Shown piece after piece: positions 40,568 through 59,936 of a stretch of DNA of 64,000 bases. The stretch is from an uncultured Candidatus Peribacteria bacterium. GTDB lineage: Bacteria > Patescibacteriota > Gracilibacteria > BD1-5 > UBA2023. The number at the start of each line of letters is the position of its first letter. The stretch's first letter is position 1. The position numbers were made by a program, and so were the translations under genes. Location of the stretch: NCBI GenBank assembly GCA_964540725.1, contig CAZINU010000001.1, positions 159,419 to 223,418 of the forward strand, read 5' to 3'. Under the pieces are notes generated by a model. The model had not been told where the DNA came from and did not search any database. It saw only the letters and a list, made by a program, of their open reading frames with translations.

Positions 40568-40736
40568 GGGGGGAATCGATTATCGTTCCTCGGAACCCCT
40601 TGCGACGGCGAGCGCCATTCAAAGCACTCGCAACCCGGACGCCCGCTTCGCGGGTCGCCGGGGTCGCCGCGGCTTCGATTCTCCTCGGATCCTCCTAAGA
40701 ACAAAAAAACGCCCCGCTTCCGCGGAGCATTTTTTG
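40568..40736 (+). ncRNA. Structured element A (candidate ncRNA) with terminator; paralogue of element B
   Basis: A 12-bp closing helix pairs GGGGGGAATCGA (40568) with TCGATTCTCCTC (40675). The 20-nt core CGTTCCTCGGAACCCCTTGC is identical to element B. Internal GC hairpins are present. A hairpin plus T6 lies at 40711-40736. Confidence 0.35.
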
Positions 40737-40840
40737 TGTTCTTTTGGTACCACCAGAGTGGTACTATGCGAACTTTCGGTAGAGTTGTCAATATATGCGT
40801 ACGGGGAAATGATCCCAATAATCAAAGTTTTACTTTAATA

Positions 40841-41101
40841 CCGAACGAACTCTCCGGAGGGCAGCAGCAGCGCGTCGCCATTGCCCGCGCCATCGTCGGA
40901 AACCCGTCGATCATTCTGGCGGACGAACCGACGGGGGCGCTCGACTCCAAGACGGGGTCGGAAATCTTGGATATCTTCGAGAGCGTCCATAAAGAGGGGA
41001 AAACCATCGTGCTCATTACCCACGAAAGCGAAATCGCGGCCCGCGCCAAGCGCGTCATCCACGTGAAAGACGGGAGGATCGAGTCGGACGAACGGGTGTA
41101 G
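40841..41101 (+). pseudogene. 3' fragment (copy 2) of the MacB-type ABC ATPase gene
   Basis: It encodes only [16 protein letters not shown]...[10 protein letters not shown] without a Walker A. It is near-identical to 36581-36837 and ends in TAG. Confidence 0.85.
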
Positions 41102-41115
41102 GTTCGCGTTCCCGG

Positions 41116-41550
41116 TTAGTCCGGAAAGTGGATTCACGGCATCGGAACGCCCATCATGGTCAAACTCCCGCACAGCTCCGAGTAGTCTTCAGCCATTCCT
41201 TCCAAAATCCGGAGCTGTTCGGGTGAGAGTTCTTCGGGGTTTACCATTCGAAAAATGACGCGGGCAGCCTCCATGCAACTCTTGATGGTGTCGAACCCCC
41301 GGTCGTCTCCGAGCAAATCGTTTCCGAGCGTAAGGACCGATCGAAAACGGTACGCCTTTTCTTCGAAGGACAATTCGGACTGCATTTCGACGATATCGAG
41401 CGCGGACGACGCAACGGAGTCGGAAAAATTGGGAGTTCTAGATTCCTGGTCCAATCCGGGGCCGATGGCCGATGTTTGGAGTACTTCGAAAATATCGTCG
41501 CGCGCGTTCATGGGCGTTCGGTTTTTAAGGAAACTGCTTTCCGTACGCAT
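41116..41550 (-). CDS. Hypothetical protein
   Basis: The 138-aa ORF ends in TGA (41134). Five more codons lead to TAA at 41116. Confidence 0.45.
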
Positions 41551-41823: not shown

Positions 41824-41898
41824 TGGTACCCCCAAGGAGAATCGAACTCCTGTTACCACCGTGAGAGGGTGGTGTCCTAGCCGCTAGACGATGAGGGC
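41824..41898 (-). tRNA. tRNA-Glu (anticodon CUC), CCA encoded
   Basis: Hand-folded cloverleaf: acceptor GCCCTCA/TGGGGGT, the D-arm TCGTCTAGCGGCTAGGACA typical of tRNA-Glu, anticodon stem CCACC/GGTGG with loop CTCTCAC, and T-arm AGGAG-TTCGATT-CTCCT. Confidence 0.88.
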
Positions 41899-48957: not shown

Positions 48958-49020
48958 TTAGCACACTCATATAAAACGTGCTAAAAAGCATTTGACAGGA
49001 GGGGTTGGCACGCATATACT
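48958..49020 (+). promoter_or_regulatory. CIRCE (HrcA) operator followed by a sigma-70-like promoter upstream of dnaK
   Basis: TTAGCACAC-N9-ACGTGCTAA lies at 48958-48984. It is followed by TTGACA (48992)-N17-TATACT (49015). Confidence 0.7.
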
Positions 49021-49052
49021 TGGGTGCGAATTATCCATTGTCTTTTTTCCGT

Positions 49053-50939
49053 ATGTCTAAAATCATCGGCATCGACCTCGGTACCACCAACTCCTGCGTC
49101 GCCTTCATGGAAGGCGGACAAGCCAAAGTGATTCCCAATGCCGAGGGCGGCCGCACCACGCCGTCGGTCGTCGCGTCGAAGGGCGGCGATACGCTCGTCG
49201 GCATGCCGGCCAAGCGCCAGGCCGTCATGAACCCGGCCCAGACCATCTATTCCGCCAAGCGCTTCATCGGCCGGAAGTTCAGCGAAGTCGGCAGCGAACT
49301 CAAGACCGTTCCGTTCAAAGTGACCGAAGGTCCGGACGGGGGATGCCTTATCGAGTTCAACGGCCAAGCCGTCCGCCCCGAGGAGATTTCGGCCAAGGTT
49401 CTCGAAAAGCTCAAGGAAGACGCCGAGAAGTTCTTGAATGAGAAGGTAACCGAAGCCGTCATCACCGTTCCGGCCTACTTCAACGACTCCCAGCGGCAAG
49501 CGACCATCAACGCCGGAAAAATCGCCGGCCTCGACGTCAAGCGCATCGTCAACGAACCCACCGCCGCCGCCCTCGCGTACGGCATCGAGAAGAAGAAGGA
49601 CGAAAGGGTCGCCGTCTACGACTTCGGAGGCGGAACCTTCGACATCTCCATTCTCGAAATCGGGGCGGAGGGAACCTTCGAGGTGCTCGCTACCAACGGC
49701 GACACCCACCTCGGAGGCGACGACTTCGACCAGAAGATCTTCGAATGGATCGTCGAAGAATTCAAGAAGGACCAGGGCGTCGACCTTACGAAGGACCCCA
49801 TGGCCGTCCAGCGCGTCAAGGACGAAGCCGAAAAGGCGAAGAAGGAGCTCTCGTCCGCATCCGAAACCGATATCAACCTGCCGTACATCACGGTCGACGC
49901 TTCCGGGCCGAAGAACCTCTTCATGAAGCTCTCTCGCGCCAAGTTCGAAGAACTCGTCTACGACCTCGTGCAACGCTCGGTCGAACCGTGCCGCAAGGCC
50001 CTTTCCGACGCGGGACTCCAAGCTTCGCAGATCGACGAAGTCATCCTCGTCGGAGGCTCCACCCGCGTTCCGCTCGTCATTAAAAAGGTCGAAGAAATCT
50101 TCGGAAAGAAGCCCAACGCGTCCGTCAATCCCGACGAAGCCGTCGCCGTGGGCGCGGCCGTCCAGGCGGGTATCATCCGCGGCGACGTCACCGACGTCCT
50201 CCTCTTGGACGTTACGCCGCTTTCCCTCGGTATCGAAACCTTGGGCGGCGTCATGACCCGAATGATCGAGCGCAATACGACCATCCCGACGAGCAAATCG
50301 CAGGTCTACTCCACCGCCGCCGACAATCAGGATTCGGTCGAAATCCACGTCCTCCAAGGTGAGCGCGAAATGGCGGGCGACAACAAATCGCTCGGACGCT
50401 TCATTCTTTCGGGCATCGCCCCGGCACCCCGCGGCATGCCGCAGATCGAAGTCACCTTCGATATCGACGCTTCCGGCGTCCTCCACGTAACCGCCAAGGA
50501 CAAGGGAACCGGAAAAGAACAGAAGGTCTCCATCCAGGGTTCCACCGGAATGGACGACAAGGAAGTCGAAAAGCTCGTCAAAGAAGCCGAAGCCAACCGC
50601 GAAGCCGACAAGAAGCGCAAGGAAGGCATCGAAGCCCGCAACCATGCCGATTCGGCCCTCTATCAGGCCGAAAAGACGATGAAAGATAACGAAGGCAAAT
50701 TCGACGACGCCCTGAAGGCCGAAGCCGAAGGCAAGGTGGCCGATTTAAAGAAGGTGCTCGAAGATTCGAACGCTTCGAAGGAATCTATCGAAGAGGCTAC
50801 CAAATCGCTCACCGAGGTAATGATGAAGATCGGTCAGGAAATCTATTCCAAGGCCCAGAATTCGACCGACGCCGGCAATGCCGGACAGGGCGGGGAAGGG
50901 GAGGCTTCCTCCGAGTCGGAGGGAAGCAAGGCGGAATAA
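49053..50939 (+). CDS. dnaK: Molecular chaperone DnaK (Hsp70)
   Basis: The product starts [14 protein letters not shown] and carries [17 protein letters not shown] and a C-terminal lid. Confidence 0.97.
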
Positions 50940-51372: not shown

Positions 51373-51447
51373 TGGGGTATCGCCAAGCGGTAAGGCAGCG
51401 GATTTTGACTCCGCCACGCGGGGGTTCGAATCCCTCTACCCCAGCCA
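51373..51447 (+). tRNA. tRNA-Gln (anticodon UUG), CCA encoded
   Basis: TGGGGTATCGCCAAGCGGTAAGGCA matches the tRNA-Gln 5' half, including the U1-A72 pair. The anticodon stem is GCGGA/TCCGC with loop TTTTGAC. The T-arm is GGGGG-TTCGAAT-CCCTC. The acceptor 3' strand is TACCCCA, followed by G-CCA. Confidence 0.9.
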
Positions 51448-51462
51448 TAAGGGTCATAAACG

Positions 51463-51492
51463 CAAAGGGAAGCCGAAAACGGCTTCCCTTTG
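51463..51492. terminator. 13-bp hairpin between tRNA-Gln and the recombinase gene
   Basis: CAAAGGGAAGCCG-aaaa-CGGCTTCCCTTTG. It lies inside the still-open recombinase reading frame. Confidence 0.5.
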
Positions 51493-51555
51493 CCGTTATC
51501 GGAGTTCGAACTTTTTTTCCCGCCCCCCTTCTTCTTTTTGGACCTCGTTAGAACT

Positions 51556-53216
51556 TCACGATGGAAAATGCCTTGGAATAGCGGTTTCAGGCGGAAGTTC
51601 ACTATGCGCCCCCGATGAACGATGACGTAGTCGAAAATCGCTTTCGCCACTCATCGTTTTTTTCGTGGCGGGAAGTTTTTGAAATTGGTAGCGAGCTCTC
51701 TCGCGTAGGATAATGGTTCGTTTATCATCTCCGCGTTCCTTTCGGATACCGCGGGAAGGTTGGCGAGACGGTTCTTCGTCTCTTCGATTTCGACTTCCAG
51801 CTTGGATAACTGGTCGCGGATTTTTTCCTTCAGGAAAGGAAGCGTTTCCTCTACGTAGACCTTTAAGTTCCGTTGGCTTTCCCCTTCGAGCCTTCCGAGT
51901 TTTTTCCGAAGCAGGTTTCCGACGTCTTCTTGGAGTTTCCCTTCGGATTCGAGTCGAATCTCGATTGCCGTTTTGAGAAGTTTCATTTCTTCTTCGTCGA
52001 AGACCAGTTTCGATATGATTTCCTCGTTCAGAAGATTTTCCAGTGTGATGCCCGATATGAACTCGTTGTCGCAAGCCCCCTTTTTATTACAGGAGCAACG
52101 GTAGTATTGGTAGGATTTCTCCTTCTTTTTCTTGGTTTCCGCGGTAAACGGACGGAGCGATCAATTTTTCACGGCCGTTTCGTAATCCGTTCCGTCTCCC
52201 ATTTGGCACGGACAACGGACGATTCCTTTCCAAAGATACACTTCGTTTCATTCCCCCCATCCGCCTTTCGGTCAGCATTTCTTGCCTTCTCGAACGGCCC
52301 GGCATTGGTCGAACAGCCGTTTCGATATCAGGGGTACGAACGTTCCGAGTTCCCGTATCCGTTCGGTATAATCGACGACGACGCTTCATTCGCCGATTTC
52401 CATGAACGGGTATTTTTCTCGCAAGTACTCCCTTGCTTCGTTGTCGGGCATCTTATATTCGATTGCCACCCGACCCCAGTACAATTCCTGCGACAACATC
52501 TTTTCCACGTCCTTTTTCGTGAATTCCTCGATAATCTCGGGTTTTTCTCCGGAACGGTATTTCCGAAATCCGAGGCCGTTCAGTTTTTCTGCCAAGCTTT
52601 CGAAGCTGTACTCCCCCGTGGAATACAGTTCGAAACAGTTTATGACGGCCTCGTTTATCCGATGGTTCGTGTCGATTTCTACGCGCGTATATTTTCCTCT
52701 TCCATTCCGTACGTATCATCTCGGCACTTGTCAGGAAATCGTTCCTTTCTCACGAATGGCACTATCGAGGTTCATGACGCCACCGCGGGATTTCTCCATG
52801 CTTTCGAAGACCGCTTCGTTTATGGCGTCCGCAAGTGCTTTCTTTCCCGACAGCACGGAACAATCGAAGCCTTCCCGTATCGAATATACCTTAACGACGT
52901 TCCCGACCACGTACCTTTTCAGAACGTCTCATTCTTCGAAGTTTCTCGCCAAACGCGAAGCCATGTAGACGAAAACCCCGTCGATTCTTTCGCCTTCGCC
53001 GAGAACGTTCCTTTTCCGTATCTCTTCCAGCATTTCCGTAAACTCGTCCCGACATCCAGCGACGAAGCTCGATTTGTTGTCCTTGAAAACTTTCACGATT
53101 TCGAATCAGCGCTTTCGGCATTCCGTGGTCAGCGCGTCGATTTGAAAGTCGATCGAAACCGAACGGTCCTTGTGTTTCAGACTGCTCCTTCTGGCGTAAA
53201 TGAAGACTTTTTCCAT
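51556..53216 (-). CDS. Large serine recombinase (integrase), 9 in-frame TGAs, 3' end undefined
   Basis: MEKVFIYARRSS...SIDFQ (catalytic Ser) and YMASRLARN mark the resolvase domain. The recombinase domain has PLISKRLFDQCRAV. The zinc ribbon is VRCPCQMGDG...YQYYRCSC. A coiled coil follows, then the C-terminal AIFDYVIVHRGRIVNFRL. There is no in-frame TAA or TAG until 51021, so the frame crosses tRNA-Gln antisense. Confidence 0.85.
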
Positions 53217-53735: not shown

Positions 53736-54497
53736 CTACAGCCATTCTGCGACTTTTTTGAAAGAACGATTCAAGGCTTCCTTGCGTTCTTCGTCGCTCC
53801 TTCCGTCGTCTTCCACGAATCACGGAACGAACAGCACGGCGATTATCGGGAAAACGAAGAATCAGGCGGAGAAGGCTTCGAACCATTCGGGCGTGGTACC
53901 GATTCCGTCGAATATCTTTACGGGAACCATAAAAAGAGCGAAAAACGCGAACCAGTGCTTCTTCAAAAGCGTGGTGATGACGAGTATCGCGTAAAGGAAT
54001 CCGAGACCGCTCAAAAGCGATGCCATCGCCACGAAGAAGAGAACGAATCATCGGACGTTCGACGGAATCTTCGAAAGGATTGCGTCGGCGGTTTTGATCG
54101 CTTCGCAAATCCAAGCGAGAACTTCTATCCAAAGGGGGTATCGCGTTTCCTTCGGTCGCGGTTTTTCCACGGTCGGTTTCGGTTCCGACGTCCGCCGAAC
54201 CGAAAGGTTCGATTTGAGGCTTTCGTATTCTTCCATCATCGCAACGAAATCGGCCCCCTTTCATCAGCGGTCTGGGTGGTATTTCATCGCGAGTTTGCGT
54301 TTTTGCCCTTCGAGCAAGGCTTCTTCGCCGACGAAGTACCGGTCTTTGGGGAAGTGTTTCATACGCGCGGTCGGGTAATGGAAAAACCTTTCCGCGATTG
54401 TATCTGGGAAAAATGTCTTGTCCGGTGCTTTAGTGCGGAGATTGCGCGGTACCCGAGTCGATACGCGGAAAACGCCCAGACACGCTCGAACACGCAT
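53736..54497 (-). CDS. J-domain (DnaJ-like) membrane protein
   Basis: KRKLAMKYHPDR-[TGA][TGA]-KGADFVAMMEEYESL restores HPD-x-GG (54261-54266). Hydrophobic helices follow. There are 5 in-frame TGAs in total. The stop is TAG at 53736. Confidence 0.75.
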
Positions 54498-56743: not shown

Positions 56744-57982
56744 CTACCGCTCTCTATCTTTCAATAAGACTATGAAATCTTCAAGATTCATGAGCCAGCC
56801 CTTCTGCCTGTCCGTATAGGTTTCATGAAGTTTCTTCGGGAGGATGAGTTGAAGATTTTCACTTCGCATCTCGTCCGTTTGAGATTCGCTGATTGCTGTT
56901 TGAAGAGTGATGAGATGTTTTTTCTCGATTCGTTTCGCTTCGGCTAAAACCTGTCTCCATCTGTCTTTACAGGTTGTCTTCGCGCCCAGCATTGTCAGTT
57001 TACTTATTGGAAAAGCGGGATTTCTGTATTCGTCGATTCATGGAAAGAGGAAATCCGGTTTGGAGCGGTTTTCCGTTATTTCAGTTCTTGAATGCCTGAT
57101 GGATCTGCTTTTGAAAAGATGTTCTATATGGTTTTCCAAACTTGCTCAAGCGCGACTTTTCCTTCTGTTTTGAACATGGAGCGAGAAACCTATGAATCCT
57201 TCAACGTCGGCAATGCCCCGACCATCCATGAATCATTGGGAAAGCCTGTCAGCCAGATGATAACGCTCCAAGGTTCTAAAAAGTACCTCCTCACGTTCCA
57301 TCCACGCCATAAGGACGGAATCTGAATCATCCAAGGCATCGACGCCTTTCAAAGTTTGCCGAGCGTATTCGGAAAAGATTTTCGTACTTGGAAACGAGTC
57401 TTTTCAAAAACGAGAAAGCATATCTTCCAAGAATGTCTCGTCTTCCGTCTCCACCTGAAATCCTATCGCTTCCAAAATTGTTTTTGCTGCGAACTCGATT
57501 CGAACCTGTCAGGTTTCAATTTCGCTCCTGACTGAAAATCAAGGATGGGCTGACGTCGTTAGGCCAAAGAGCCATTCTAATTGGCTGGCGATAGTCGAAT
57601 CGTTTTCGGCAATAATGATCAACAGCCGTCAGTTCGGTAATTTGCCGATGATTAGTAAGTCGCCTTCATTGGCGCATTCAGAGACGCTGGTTGTCGGAAA
57701 ATAGAGCCTATATTCAGAACGTCAGGTTTTCTCGAAACTTTTAGCCCTTGGGTCATACCAAGTCACCGTTCATTCATCCGAGACGGCTTCGTCGTCAAAA
57801 TCGTTGAGGTACAGAAAATGCGCTTCGAAATACTTCTTTTCTTGCTCCTCTCACAACATCGTTTTAAGTCCTTTTACCCCATTGAACTCGTGCTGATTCG
57901 AATTCGCGGGATTCGCTTCGACTGCGCTCAATCGCTTTGCAGCGATGCTCTCAAAATATTTGGAAAGATACCCGTTTTCCAT
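56744..57982 (-). CDS. Type II restriction endonuclease, EcoRII-like (10 in-frame TGAs)
   Basis: Hand-joined 412-aa product. The N-terminus is MENGYLSKYFESIAAKRLSAVEANPANSNQHEFNG. The C-terminus is PDFLFP...GAKTTCKDRWRQVLAEAKRIEKKHLITLQTAISESQTDEM. The family call is from memory of EcoRII-type sequences. The ATG directly follows the methylase TAA. Confidence 0.75.
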
Positions 57983-59263
57983 TTATGCCGTAGTTATCAA
58001 AGAAGGAGCGTCCTCTTTCATTTTAGCCAACAAGGGCGAATAAAGCGATAGCTGTTGATTTTTTATACCCATGATATGGGGTTTCATTGCTCGCGCTGCT
58101 TCGCTCATAACTGGAACGACGACGGAGTTTCCGAATTGCCTATAAGCTTGGGTGTCGGAGACCGGGATTTTGAAAGAATCGGGAAATCACATCAGACGCG
58201 CGCATTCACGGGGTGTAAGTCGCCTTGGATTCTTATTTTTACCCCTTGAGACGAGTATTTCCGAACCATCTTTGTAATATCGGGCGGAGAGAGTTCGACT
58301 TGTGTCATTCGGCGTCACCAATCCGAATCAGAACCCATTTCACTTCGCCTTGTGCTTCTCGGCGTATCATTGTAAGTATGCCCACAGCTTGTCTGATAGG
58401 GTGAACTTCGATTGAACTTTTCATTTGGAACCGTGAATGTACCTATTTCCATCATGTTCAATTGGCAATTCCGTTCCGTCCTCTGGATGAAGGATGAAGT
58501 TCATCTTCGGTGCCGATAATGGAATGTTGAAGGAGTCCCATGAAAAATCAGTCTTCTCCCTGAATCCAACTATCAGTATTCGTTCCCGATGTTGTGGAAC
58601 CCAAGATTTTCCATCTACGACCTTCCAATGTACGTCATAACCCAATTCATCTCGTAATGTTTGTAAGATTACGCGGAACGTATTGCCTTTATCATGGGAA
58701 ACAAGATTTTTTACGTTTTCCAGCAAGAAAGCCGAAGGGCGTTTTTCTGCGATAATTCTTGCGACATCAAAAAAAAGAGTTCATTGGGTGGTACATTCGA
58801 AACCATGAGGACGACCAAGGGAGTTCTTTTTACTTACCCCAGCGATAGAGAATGGCTGACAAGGGAAACCTGCCAGCAATACATCATGATTCGGTATATC
58901 TTTCGCTTCAACTTTGGTAATATCTCACTCCACCTTGTGATCCTCCCCGAAGTTCTCGACGTAAGTTTTTACTGACCAAGGACTCCATTCGCTCGTAAAC
59001 ACGCACTTTCCGCCTGCTTGTTCGAAACCAAGGCGAATGCCACCGATTCAGGCGAAGAGGTCTATGAACGTGAAATCTTGTCCGCCATTTGTTCAGTTCT
59101 TGGAGGAAAGGGCTTCTTTAAGGGCTGGGATTATCAAGGATGGGGTGGGGATTTCACCTTTTTCCCAACGTCGAATGGTACGAGAGTTCCTTCATAAAAT
59201 GTTCGCGATTTCTCATTGAGAAAAGCGTAATCGGGCCTTTGCGAGCATTTCTTGCGGACTCAT
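57983..59263 (-). CDS. DNA cytosine-5 methyltransferase with N-terminal HTH (11 in-frame TGAs)
   Basis: An Xre-like HTH (SQ-[G]-EIANIL-[G][13 protein letters not shown]) precedes the methylase motifs. These are motif I FIDLFA-[G]-IGG, motif [10 protein letters not shown], motif VI ENV, motif [24 protein letters not shown]-[G]-FPD and QFGNSV. Confidence 0.9.
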
Positions 59264-59308
59264 ATTTTCGTTTTACTGGGTAAGATTTCGGACAAAATAT
59301 CCGGATTC

Positions 59309-59345
59309 TGACACATGTCAAAAGGCATTTTATGTATTTTTACAT
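59309..59345. promoter_or_regulatory. Palindromes in the AT-rich region upstream of the methylase (candidate operators)
   Basis: TGACA-ca-TGTCA lies at 59309-59320 and ATGTA-tttt-TACAT at 59332-59345. Confidence 0.35.
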
Positions 59346-59501
59346 AAAACCATATGTAATTTATAAGCGAAACACAATTTATTTGTGGATTTACTCGTCT
59401 CAAAGAAGAAAAGCCTCCGTTAATCTCGCTAAATCGTCAGGCTTACAGCCTTTCATAAAGAGTTCTAACACTGCCTCCTCGGGTCAGCCATTCTCGAATC
59501 A

Positions 59502-59706
59502 AAAATCCCCCGAAAGGGGGATTTGTTGTTCGAGAAGGCGGGGTAGAGGGATTCGAAGCCGCCGCCTTCCGTCTCGTCCGCCGGAGGCGGCGAGGCGGTA
59601 CGGAGCCACTATTCGTGGCTCCGTAGGCAAGGGGTTCCGAGGAACGAGCGTCCGGCGCCGCATCGCGGCCCGGCGCGACATTCCGAGGAAAGAATCCCTC
59701 TACCCC
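59502..59706 (-). ncRNA. Structured element B (candidate ncRNA) with terminator; paralogue of element A
   Basis: On the minus strand the 5' arm GGGGTAGAGGGATTC (59706-59692) pairs with the 3' arm GAATCCCTCTACCCC inside 59540-59557. Internal hairpins are present, for example ACGGAGCCAC-gaata-GTGGCTCCGT. The shared 20-nt core is at 59627-59646. An AAATCCCCC-tttc-GGGGGATTTTT terminator lies at 59503-59524. Confidence 0.35.
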
Positions 59707-59936
59707 TCCGCAAGTTTCCAACGAACGGGGGCGTATCGTTCCAACATTCCTCTATCCCCAGTACGCGGAGGGGTTTCTTCCCGAAAGCCACCGTATCGAA
59801 TCCTTCCAAATTTCGATTTGCTTTTTCTTTCGGAATCCATAGAGTCTTCGGGCTCAAAAAGGCGGGAAGGGTTTTTCGCCTGTTGATTCGGAGTGATTTT
59901 TCCATATACTCCCCACCGTCATTTTTCATTCGTACC

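Follow-up and report, generated by a model that had tools for sequence, protein, structure and literature searches.

An inverted copy of the tRNA target and a paralogous hairpin module at the attR border of a large serine recombinase island in a TGA-recoded bacterium

Why should the border of an island that has entered a tRNA gene carry the 3' end of that gene twice, once directly and once inverted? The question is raised by a stretch of 64,000 nucleotides from an uncultured Candidatus Peribacteria bacterium (contig CAZINU010000001.1, positions 159,419 to 223,418 of the forward strand), referred to here at its full length as the window, in which a tRNA-Gln(UUG) gene (51373-51447, plus strand; ARAGORN and Rfam) and rplU, encoding ribosomal protein L21, stand on either side of a block of minus-strand genes. 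At the rplU end of this block lies a compact, hairpin-rich sequence that we call element B. The original prediction, made from the letters of the window, held that B doubles as the right-hand attachment (att) repeat of an island at tRNA-Gln, and considered both its long identity with the tRNA and its inverted copy to be unexpected. Our analyses show that the block is an 8.3-kb integrative island, inserted into the T-loop of tRNA-Gln by a large serine recombinase (LSR), and that B is its attR. The recombinase open reading frame (ORF) crosses the att itself, and B has a diverged paralogue, element A, matched to a different tRNA; we tentatively suggest that the minus strand of B, B(-), serves the recombinase gene as a 3' module that depends on the state of integration.

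The 15-nt sequence GAATCCCTCTACCCC, which spans the 3' half of the T-loop, the 3' strand of the T-stem and the 3' strand of the acceptor stem of tRNA-Gln, occurs exactly three times in the window: in the tRNA gene (51428-51442), as a direct copy in the outer arm of B (59692-59706), and inverted in the inner arm (59540-59554, minus strand). Shuffled sequences yielded 0.21 matches per shuffle with two mismatches allowed, and none of 100 shuffles reached three. The outer arm is an exact repeat, as predicted, and the predicted 18-nt inverted copy is also present (18 of 18 nt, 59540-59557 against 51425-51442), the match in fact reaching 20 of 21 nt (59540-59560 against 51422-51442). The two local copies form a perfect closing stem of 15 bp (18 nt at 94% with the flanks), again as foreseen, but the interior that it encloses measures 137 nt (59555-59691) rather than 134, the smaller figure having been counted from the 18-nt inner copy. 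Similarly, an element beginning at 59502 takes in too much, since 59502-59536 is a separate, bidirectional terminator-like hairpin outside the tRNA-derived hairpin, although the remainder of the proposed range holds. Three hairpins occupy the interior, which has 69% G+C against 48.5% for the island and about 57-58% for the host flanks on both sides. Folded as RNA, B has a minimum free energy (MFE) of about -147 kcal/mol on either strand (z = -10.4 and -11.6); folded as DNA, its z-score is -7.7. Coordinates of these and other features are collected in Table 1.

Insertion at tRNA-Gln is evident from related loci. Four relatives (L002, L005, L008 and L034) possess dnaK, tRNA-Gln(UUG) and, after only 90-105 nt, rplU, with neither island nor B; their L21 proteins are 83-84% identical to that of the window, making them species-level relatives and not the same strain. 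The tRNA-Gln of L002 is the same as that of the window from T-loop to CCA. The empty site that had been sought in related genomes is therefore found, while the opposite arrangement, a B hairpin beside rplU without any island, occurs in none of the four, and B is consequently not a resident feature upstream of rplU. Together with the LSR and the location of its homologues at tRNA genes, described below, these empty sites bear out the identification of the outer arm as the right-hand att repeat. The 3' part of tRNA-Gln from the T-loop onward was probably supplied by the island. An independent contig from Logan, L001, contains the integrated right junction in the same orientation as the window. 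The organism also occurs in the sequencing run SRR5011273.

The closest relative, Logan contig L011 (from SRR22387982; L21 93% identical), begins inside a B-like element beside rplU. It reads ...GGCGAGGAAAAA-GAATCCCCCTGCCCC-AGCCA, followed by a terminator and then the rplU leader; its arm, GAATCCCCCTGCCCC, co-varies, retains the full AGCCA tRNA end, and apparently follows that organism's own tRNA-Gln sequence. Both L001, which starts at the equivalent of window position 59668, and L011, which starts 33 nt before the arm, break near the centre of hairpin Ha. A break at nearly the same site in two contigs is probably an assembly break caused by the palindrome, and the shared break point hints at the same hairpin in L011.

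From about 59792 the rplU leader is homologous in the window, L011 and L012. Its upstream promoter-like site resembles the promoter region of tRNA-Gln (…CCATAGA(A/G)T…GGGCT) and is also present in L011 and L012. In L012 and L013 (L21 86% identical), positions 1-540 contain no tRNA-Gln or B-like arm above the rplU leader, the upstream region consisting instead of AT-rich DNA that includes a gene on the minus strand; a different island, or a rearrangement at this same hotspot, may account for it. A segment at 59741-59756 was first considered as a second, degenerate copy of the tRNA-Gln 3' end and then reinterpreted as homologous to the terminator hairpin located after the tRNA end in L011.

Recognition of the island as an intact unit depends on the genetic code. 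Among named organisms, the L21 protein of the window is nearest to Candidatus Gracilibacteria and to 'uncultured bacterium (gcode 4)', and gene calls on related contigs break folD at a TGA (the folD region in L001); TGA is a sense codon in this host (Gracilibacteria-type code 25/4). Under translation table 25, the minus-strand genes between tRNA-Gln and B are intact, with 8-11 in-frame TGA codons each, and elsewhere in the window a 652-aa host ATP-binding cassette (ABC) exporter has three. The impression of pseudogene debris given by table-11 ORF lists was rejected given the Gracilibacteria relatives of L21 and the genes restored by table 25; with TGA read as sense, the region from 51448 to 59.7 kb is an intact island. 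Its LSR, in table-25 translation, matches PF00239 (Resolvase), PF07508 (Recombinase) and PF13408 (Zn_ribbon_recom), the last below threshold at 20.8 bits against a curated cut-off of 25.3.

Homologues of the LSR, at 41-59% identity and 594-628 aa, have a C-terminal extension in common (…LKPLFQGIFHREVLT…SSNS…GWGxGIRT), and read on through this extension where the window has a TGA at 51651, which is hence a sense codon. The last residues of the LSR are an antisense translation of the tRNA, GWGRGI deriving from the att core and RTPAWRSQNPLPYRLAIPQ from the body of tRNA-Gln. In all five homologue contigs the LSR gene reads into a tRNA gene: Gln-UUG (L014, L016), Gln-CUG (L033, L037) or Ser-GCU (L036). 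The island of L016 lies between rplU and tRNA-Gln, as in the window; that of L036 has a 20-nt direct repeat (antisense ATGGCGGTGGGTCGGGGATT) stretching from T-loop AATCC through or just past CCA and recurring 6.9 kb away, 27 nt from tRNA-Met. An exhaustive HMMER search among 1.84 billion representative proteins returned 16 clusters at E <= 1e-30, and among the full-length clade members retrieved, most terminate in …IRT, …NRT or similar, reading the T-loop in the same frame. The LSR protein had no match in GTDB representatives, nor the family alignment in IMG/VR.

These comparisons yield a rule for the clade, namely integration in the tRNA T-loop with identity extending from (G)AATCC to the 3' end, the crossover probably being the AA of TTCGAATCC. 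On the plus strand of B, ...CCGAGGAAAG abuts the crossover and is probably the P half-site; it resembles a T-arm (GAGG-AAAGAAT-CCCTC), and the island side of the L036 crossover likewise mimics one (GTCGG-AAAT-CCCCGAC), as would be expected of the dyad symmetry of a serine-integrase site. The long identity results from the island carrying a replacement tRNA 3' end, so it is needed by the tRNA and not by the recombinase. Of the two features thought unexpected, then, the long identity proves normal for the clade, whereas the inverted copy is a genuine peculiarity: in the islands of L036, L016, L014 and L033, neither an inverted copy of at least 9 nt nor a long-range stem is present at the far end or close to it. 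In k-mer scans of L014, L015, L016, L033, L036 and L037 for B-like arms, only the plain repeat of L036 and a 6-bp mini-hairpin in L016 were seen.

Where the recombinase gene ends depends on whether the island is integrated. The LSR frame contains no TAA or TAG before the att core, and in the integrated state it stays open for 731 codons, running antisense through the tRNA to 51021, short of dnaK; beyond the hairpin at 51456-51499, no terminator-like hairpin was noted along this readthrough. In the reconstructed circle, with 51428 joined to 59691, the ORF leads on past …GWGRGI into B(-), where it meets a stop codon 27 codons later (59609-59611), in the loop of hairpin HP1. The protein is then 623 aa, the length of its homologues. 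The ORF of the L036 circle, reconstructed in the same way, stops 8 codons past the repeat, and supply of the LSR gene end from the far end of the element is, on these reconstructions, a property of the clade. All island genes, the LSR and B(-) are co-oriented, and by construction B would form the 3' end of the recombinase transcription unit in the excised element.

Further evidence comes from element A, which lies beside tRNA-Glu(CUC) in the opposite orientation to B. The two elements share the 21-nt motif TCGTTCCTCGGAACCCCTTGC, a terminal GCGGCTTCGA and a terminator hairpin after the inner arm. Between motif and terminus their sequences are near-unrelated, yet both form the same stem S2 around HP1 (7-10 bp) and HP2 (12 bp, TYC loop). 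The helices are in register within 1-2 nt (a MAFFT alignment of A and B sets the hairpins one column out of register), and 8 of the 17 compared pairs differ on both sides and still pair. The inner arm of A contains the T-loop and T-stem of tRNA-Glu (TTCGATTCTCCT), and its outer arm GGGGGGAATCGA pairs with the inner one, with two G-U pairs on the plus strand. In A as in B, therefore, the arms are complementary to each other and match the neighbouring tRNA, while the interior structure is conserved, a pattern that speaks for selected pairing or folding, or if not for that at least for hairpins that physically form, and against a random scar. Between A and tRNA-Glu are a 5'-truncated ABC ATPase fragment (40838-41101) and a 144-aa ORF (41116-41550), with no recombinase, and the region is probably the remnant of a second, decayed island; L002, which ends 115 nt beyond tRNA-Glu, has another neighbouring gene there. 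The module is confined to A, B and, in part, L011: the data hold two full copies, the L011 copy being cut at the contig start, and blastn with a word size of 7 found none in 37 other loci.

Table 1. Features of the island, its borders and element A (positions in the window)
Feature	Position	Strand	Basis or remark
Element A, opposite in orientation to B (A(+) = B(-))	40568-40686	+	Sequence and folds
Parts of A: outer arm GGGGGGAATCGA (40568-79), motif (40583-40603), S2, HP1, HP2, inner arm TCGATTCTCCTC (40675-86)	40568-40686	+	
Terminator-like hairpin after A, bidirectional, placed as in B	40703-40738		
tRNA-Glu(CUC)	41824-41898	-	ARAGORN, Rfam; 1.1 kb from A, mirror geometry of tRNA-Gln and B
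att identity block, left copy (T-loop GAATC, T-stem and acceptor 3' strands)	51428-51442	+	Sequence match, shuffles
LSR gene	51429-53216	-	Table-25 ORF, Pfam
20-bp hairpin directly 3' of tRNA-Gln, island-borne, within the LSR frame	51456-51499		Kept in P0105 at peptide and DNA level
Palindrome AGTTCGAACT (10 bp), encoding the peptide SSNS	51503-51512		About 75 nt from the T-loop
EcoRII-type (EcoRII-C-type) endonuclease	56744-57982	-	Pfam; 10-11 in-frame TGA
C5 cytosine methyltransferase, fused to a helix-turn-helix domain	57983-59263	-	Pfam; 10-11 in-frame TGA
Terminator-like hairpin, bidirectional, directly inside B; downstream of B(-) on the minus strand	59491-59536		Inverted-repeat and terminator scan
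Inner arm, inverted T-loop, T-stem and acceptor 3' strand of tRNA-Gln; pairs with outer arm	59540-59560	-	
Stem S2 around HP2 (59569-59598) and HP1 (59600-59624)	59562-59630	-	MFE folds, comparison with element A
21-nt motif TCGTTCCTCGGAACCCCTTGC, identical in element A (40583-40603)	59627-59647	-	E = 3e-6 within the window
Hairpin Ha and second TTCCTCGGAA copy (59681-59690)	59648-59691	-	Sequence, folds
Outer arm, right copy of the 15-nt att block; attR core, displaced tRNA 3' segment	59692-59706	+	
Native rplU leader, two promoter-like sites (59815-59860, 59883-59910)	59707-59936	+	

What might such a module do? The outer arm is the displaced 3' segment of the native tRNA and the block inside the tRNA gene the replacement copy brought by the island, the rest of B (probable P half-site, Ha, HP1, HP2, inverted inner arm and terminator) being island DNA. 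In the arrangement that we propose, the LSR transcript of the integrated island would run antisense into the tRNA. In the excised circle it would enter B(-), fold into a three-hairpin structure closed by 15 bp, and meet the terminator at 59530-59502. The folded module could set the fate of the LSR mRNA, through protection, termination or cleavage, and so tie expression to the integration state, while complementarity of the inner arm to the att core would be maintained so that the module closes on the junction sequence. B(-) would then be a 3' module that the recombinase gene has or lacks according to the integration state, a logic resembling that of the sib element of phage lambda; of the readings considered here it is the one we favour, at somewhat short of an even chance. 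That the module acts as RNA in cis, and in which direction it affects LSR expression, we infer from this layout. In a promoter scan, neither strand had a promoter-like site just upstream of B, and A starts 38 nt past the stop codon of the gene upstream, both of which fit an element of the 3' untranslated region (UTR) better than a separate gene.

Several observations weigh against this proposal. Both strands of B fold about equally well, so that folding establishes no polarity for an RNA and does not count against a role at the DNA level, and a ribosome reaching the stop codon in the HP1 loop must open the closing stem. The module is absent from the islands of L036, L016, L014 and L033, and so is dispensable for this recombinase clade. 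No recombinase is found beside A, and the outer arm of A is a poor copy of tRNA-Glu beyond TCGATTC. The attR of the window has TCCGC where a displaced tRNA end predicts AGCCA, which means that the last five bases changed after integration. Finally, the circle is known from reconstruction only and the empty sites from relatives only, and the transcript is purely predicted.

Of the alternatives, a functionless historical scar or small selfish module fares best, although we think it unlikely. In one form, a hairpin-rich element of ~134 nt with the ends TTCCTCGGAA… and …GGCTTCGA would have been inserted, in the manner of an insertion sequence (IS) or miniature inverted-repeat transposable element (MITE), at the centre of a palindromic att-derived sequence; in another, B would be the residue of serial or aberrant integrations. 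Either way, intrastrand conversion would keep the arms complementary. The known copies number two and a half and come from a single lineage, and the other islands of the family lack the element, as a scar would have it. A and B have conserved element ends but different flanking arms, as for insertion into different targets, and GAA stands on both sides of the B insert. Moreover, tRNA genes commonly gather partial copies through repeated integrations (10.1101/2020.12.28.424599). But neutral decay would not hold three helices in register through eight double changes, nor does a scar explain why both copies have the same geometry relative to tRNA and terminator; and at no empty or occupied site examined is there a natural perfect palindrome of the tRNA 3' segment into which an element might have been inserted. 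A MITE-like dispersed repeat is rejected, since A and B have different arms, each matched to the tRNA beside it, and there are two strongly diverged copies in 64 kb and none in 37 other loci.

A role for the module as DNA, specifically as an accessory or alternative recombination site, we regard as improbable. The inner arm would here be an inverted B'/P' half-site with a TTCGAA centre, and recombinase dimers bridging the arms might control synapsis or directionality in the manner of res sites. Alternatively, the 137-bp segment might flip as an inverton, moving the P half-site off the crossover, or the whole island might invert between 51422-42 and 59540-60. Several features of the layout favour this: the inner arm holds the whole T-loop centre and 20 of 21 nt of the target, the centres, read on one strand, are AA (outer arm) and TT (inner arm), giving an inversion geometry of the hix/gix type, in A as well as B the arms match the tRNA nearby, the island encodes a serine recombinase, and both island ends present tRNA-3'-like sequence followed inward by a terminator. 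Protein-binding sites would, however, leave the register of HP1, HP2 and S2 and their compensatory changes unexplained. Across the centre of the inner arm, the opposite half-site does not resemble the target, and a scan found no promoter-like site inside the segment. L001 enters the segment in the orientation of the window, so that the inverted repeats flank a 137-bp segment seen in one orientation, in two sequences only. L036 and L016 do without the inverted copy, and to our knowledge accessory sites have not been described for large serine recombinases.

To the possibility that the island carries, as cargo, an independent structured non-coding RNA with a function in trans, we assign a similarly low probability. 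Such an RNA might mimic an acceptor/T-helix or regulate the LSR mRNA tail, or the tRNA, by antisense pairing: it has the antisense of the tRNA-Gln 3' end in its 5' arm and a mimic of that end (…CUACCCC-GCC) in its 3' arm. The very strong stability z-score, the conserved and covarying architecture in two paralogues and the terminator directly after the element in both A and B would all be at home in an RNA gene. The G-U pairs, in the arm pairing of A and in S2 of B, favour the A(+)/B(-) strand, and B(-) has a tRNA-like end, with G then CC after the acceptor strand. Against this, the lack of a promoter-like site just upstream of B and the closeness of A to the gene upstream, noted above, speak for an attached element; a T-arm cannot form; and searches with the conserved motif found no homologue in GTDB representatives, IMG/VR or JGI metagenomes. 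An Rfam 15 gathering scan and ARAGORN recovered no known RNA, tRNA or tmRNA in B or A, and at E <= 10 Rfam gave only terminator-driven chance matches.

In those sequence collections, a 20-mer from the conserved motif had no match in GTDB representative genomes or IMG/VR. An 18-mer had 13 matches in JGI metagenomes, none with the flanking features of the module, and these were judged to be chance matches, with only L027 doubtful, where the match extends to 21 nt. A 184-aa ORF over B, used as a protein query for B-like DNA, found only itself. A likeness between the B(-) frame and LSR residues 499-558 (tblastn, 38% identity, E = 1.2) was dismissed as chance, there being no DNA similarity beyond the 15-mer.

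Most doubtful of all is the idea that the module is a target-matched nucleic acid taking part in serine-recombinase integration or its control, either as a guide or specificity adaptor or as a junction-sensing switch. As a guide, an RNA or folded single strand would show both strands of the tRNA target beside a conserved recombinase-recognition motif, and related islands could then retarget from tRNA-Gln to tRNA-Glu; as a junction sensor, it would be a switch reporting excision of the element.

Returning to the proposed 3' module of the recombinase gene, its parts can be set beside known systems. As in other tRNA-targeting islands, such as prophages, integrative and conjugative elements and the tycheposons of Prochlorococcus, the recombinase lies beside an intact tRNA, the tRNA 3' segment recurs in direct orientation at the far border, the 3' end is supplied by the element, relatives have empty sites, and defence genes are carried as cargo. 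Large serine recombinases occur in a minority of tycheposons (10.1101/2020.12.28.424599). Most tRNA-targeting islands use tyrosine integrases, unlike the present one, which has an LSR and a host with TGA as sense. We know of no such element with an inverted repeat copy closing a stem of ~170 nt over its border.

A parallel in logic is int/attP/sib retroregulation in lambda (Schindler and Echols 1981, cited in PMC6379469). In both, the 3' end of the recombinase gene faces, on the far side of attP, a structured and terminator-associated element of like orientation, and integration parts the two; the geometry is found here in the reconstructed circle and in the terminator after B(-). Lambda Int belongs to the tyrosine recombinases and its gene has a stop codon of its own, and sib is a simple RNase III hairpin without the att core, whereas in the window the ORF itself crosses att, the stem is built from core sequence, and any RNase III processing or effect on expression is hypothetical. 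The gene of SSV1-type archaeal integrases contains attP, the target is a tRNA gene, and integration alters the 3' part of the integrase gene. The recombinase ORF of our island likewise spans an attachment site in a tRNA gene, but the archaeal enzyme is a tyrosine recombinase whose gene is split into two large parts, while here the exchange affects only a short C-terminal tail and the 3' UTR. SCCmec, moved by CcrAB, is an LSR element in the 3' end of rlmH/orfX, with direct repeats of ~15 bp that restore the gene end and inverted repeats near its termini. The likeness extends to a serine-recombinase element at the 3' end of a conserved gene and to repeats of ~15 bp; however, the target here is a tRNA, and the inverted repeats of SCCmec are short and terminal and enclose no conserved structured module. 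Finally, as in Hin/Gin segments and invertons, short inverted repeats with an AA/TT crossover centre flank a small segment near a recombinase gene, but the segment contains no promoter or gene fragment, one orientation is observed, and the recombinase is of the large integrase type.

Other features of the island may be noted briefly. The palindrome AGTTCGAACT is kept in the islands of all close LSR homologues (L016, 11690s; L033, 8160s; L036, 7385s), across hosts of 36-57% G+C, and may be a further recombinase-binding or regulatory site. On the upstream side of the cargo genes, an EcoRII-type restriction-modification pair, an AT-rich promoter region (59264-59490, 37% G+C) contains two promoter-like sites on the minus strand. 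One ORF (53736-54497, minus strand) has a J-domain-like motif (…KYHPDRGG…) followed by hydrophobic segments, with no Pfam match at E <= 0.01, and the island also holds several ORFs of no assigned family. Outside the island, the strand opposite dnaK (48981-50645, minus) gives a match to PF10712, 'NAD-specific glutamate dehydrogenase' (E = 6e-150); this is an antisense artefact, the true gene being dnaK on the plus strand.

As the att border of a tRNA-integrating island, element B is ordinary in kind, standing closest to tycheposon-type elements with their partial tRNA repeats and to SCCmec with its 15-bp repeats. What is new is, firstly, a rare clade of large serine recombinases specialised on tRNA T-loops (Gln-UUG, Gln-CUG, Ser-GCU and probably Glu) in a TGA-recoded lineage of the candidate phyla radiation; secondly, a recombinase ORF that crosses its own att, so that the end of the ORF and the 3' UTR differ between the integrated and excised states; and thirdly, a conserved, structured module of ~170 nt with target-derived arms, present as two diverged paralogues matched to two tRNAs. 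The mobile elements of stop-recoded bacteria in this radiation are barely characterised, and such islands seem degraded when ORFs are called with table 11. Should the module play no part in controlling the recombinase, the locus is still a clean, annotated case of island turnover beside rplU in Gracilibacteria. If it does control LSR expression or recombination, it would represent a new solution to the problem of directionality and expression in serine integrases, enzymes that are widely used as tools for genome engineering.

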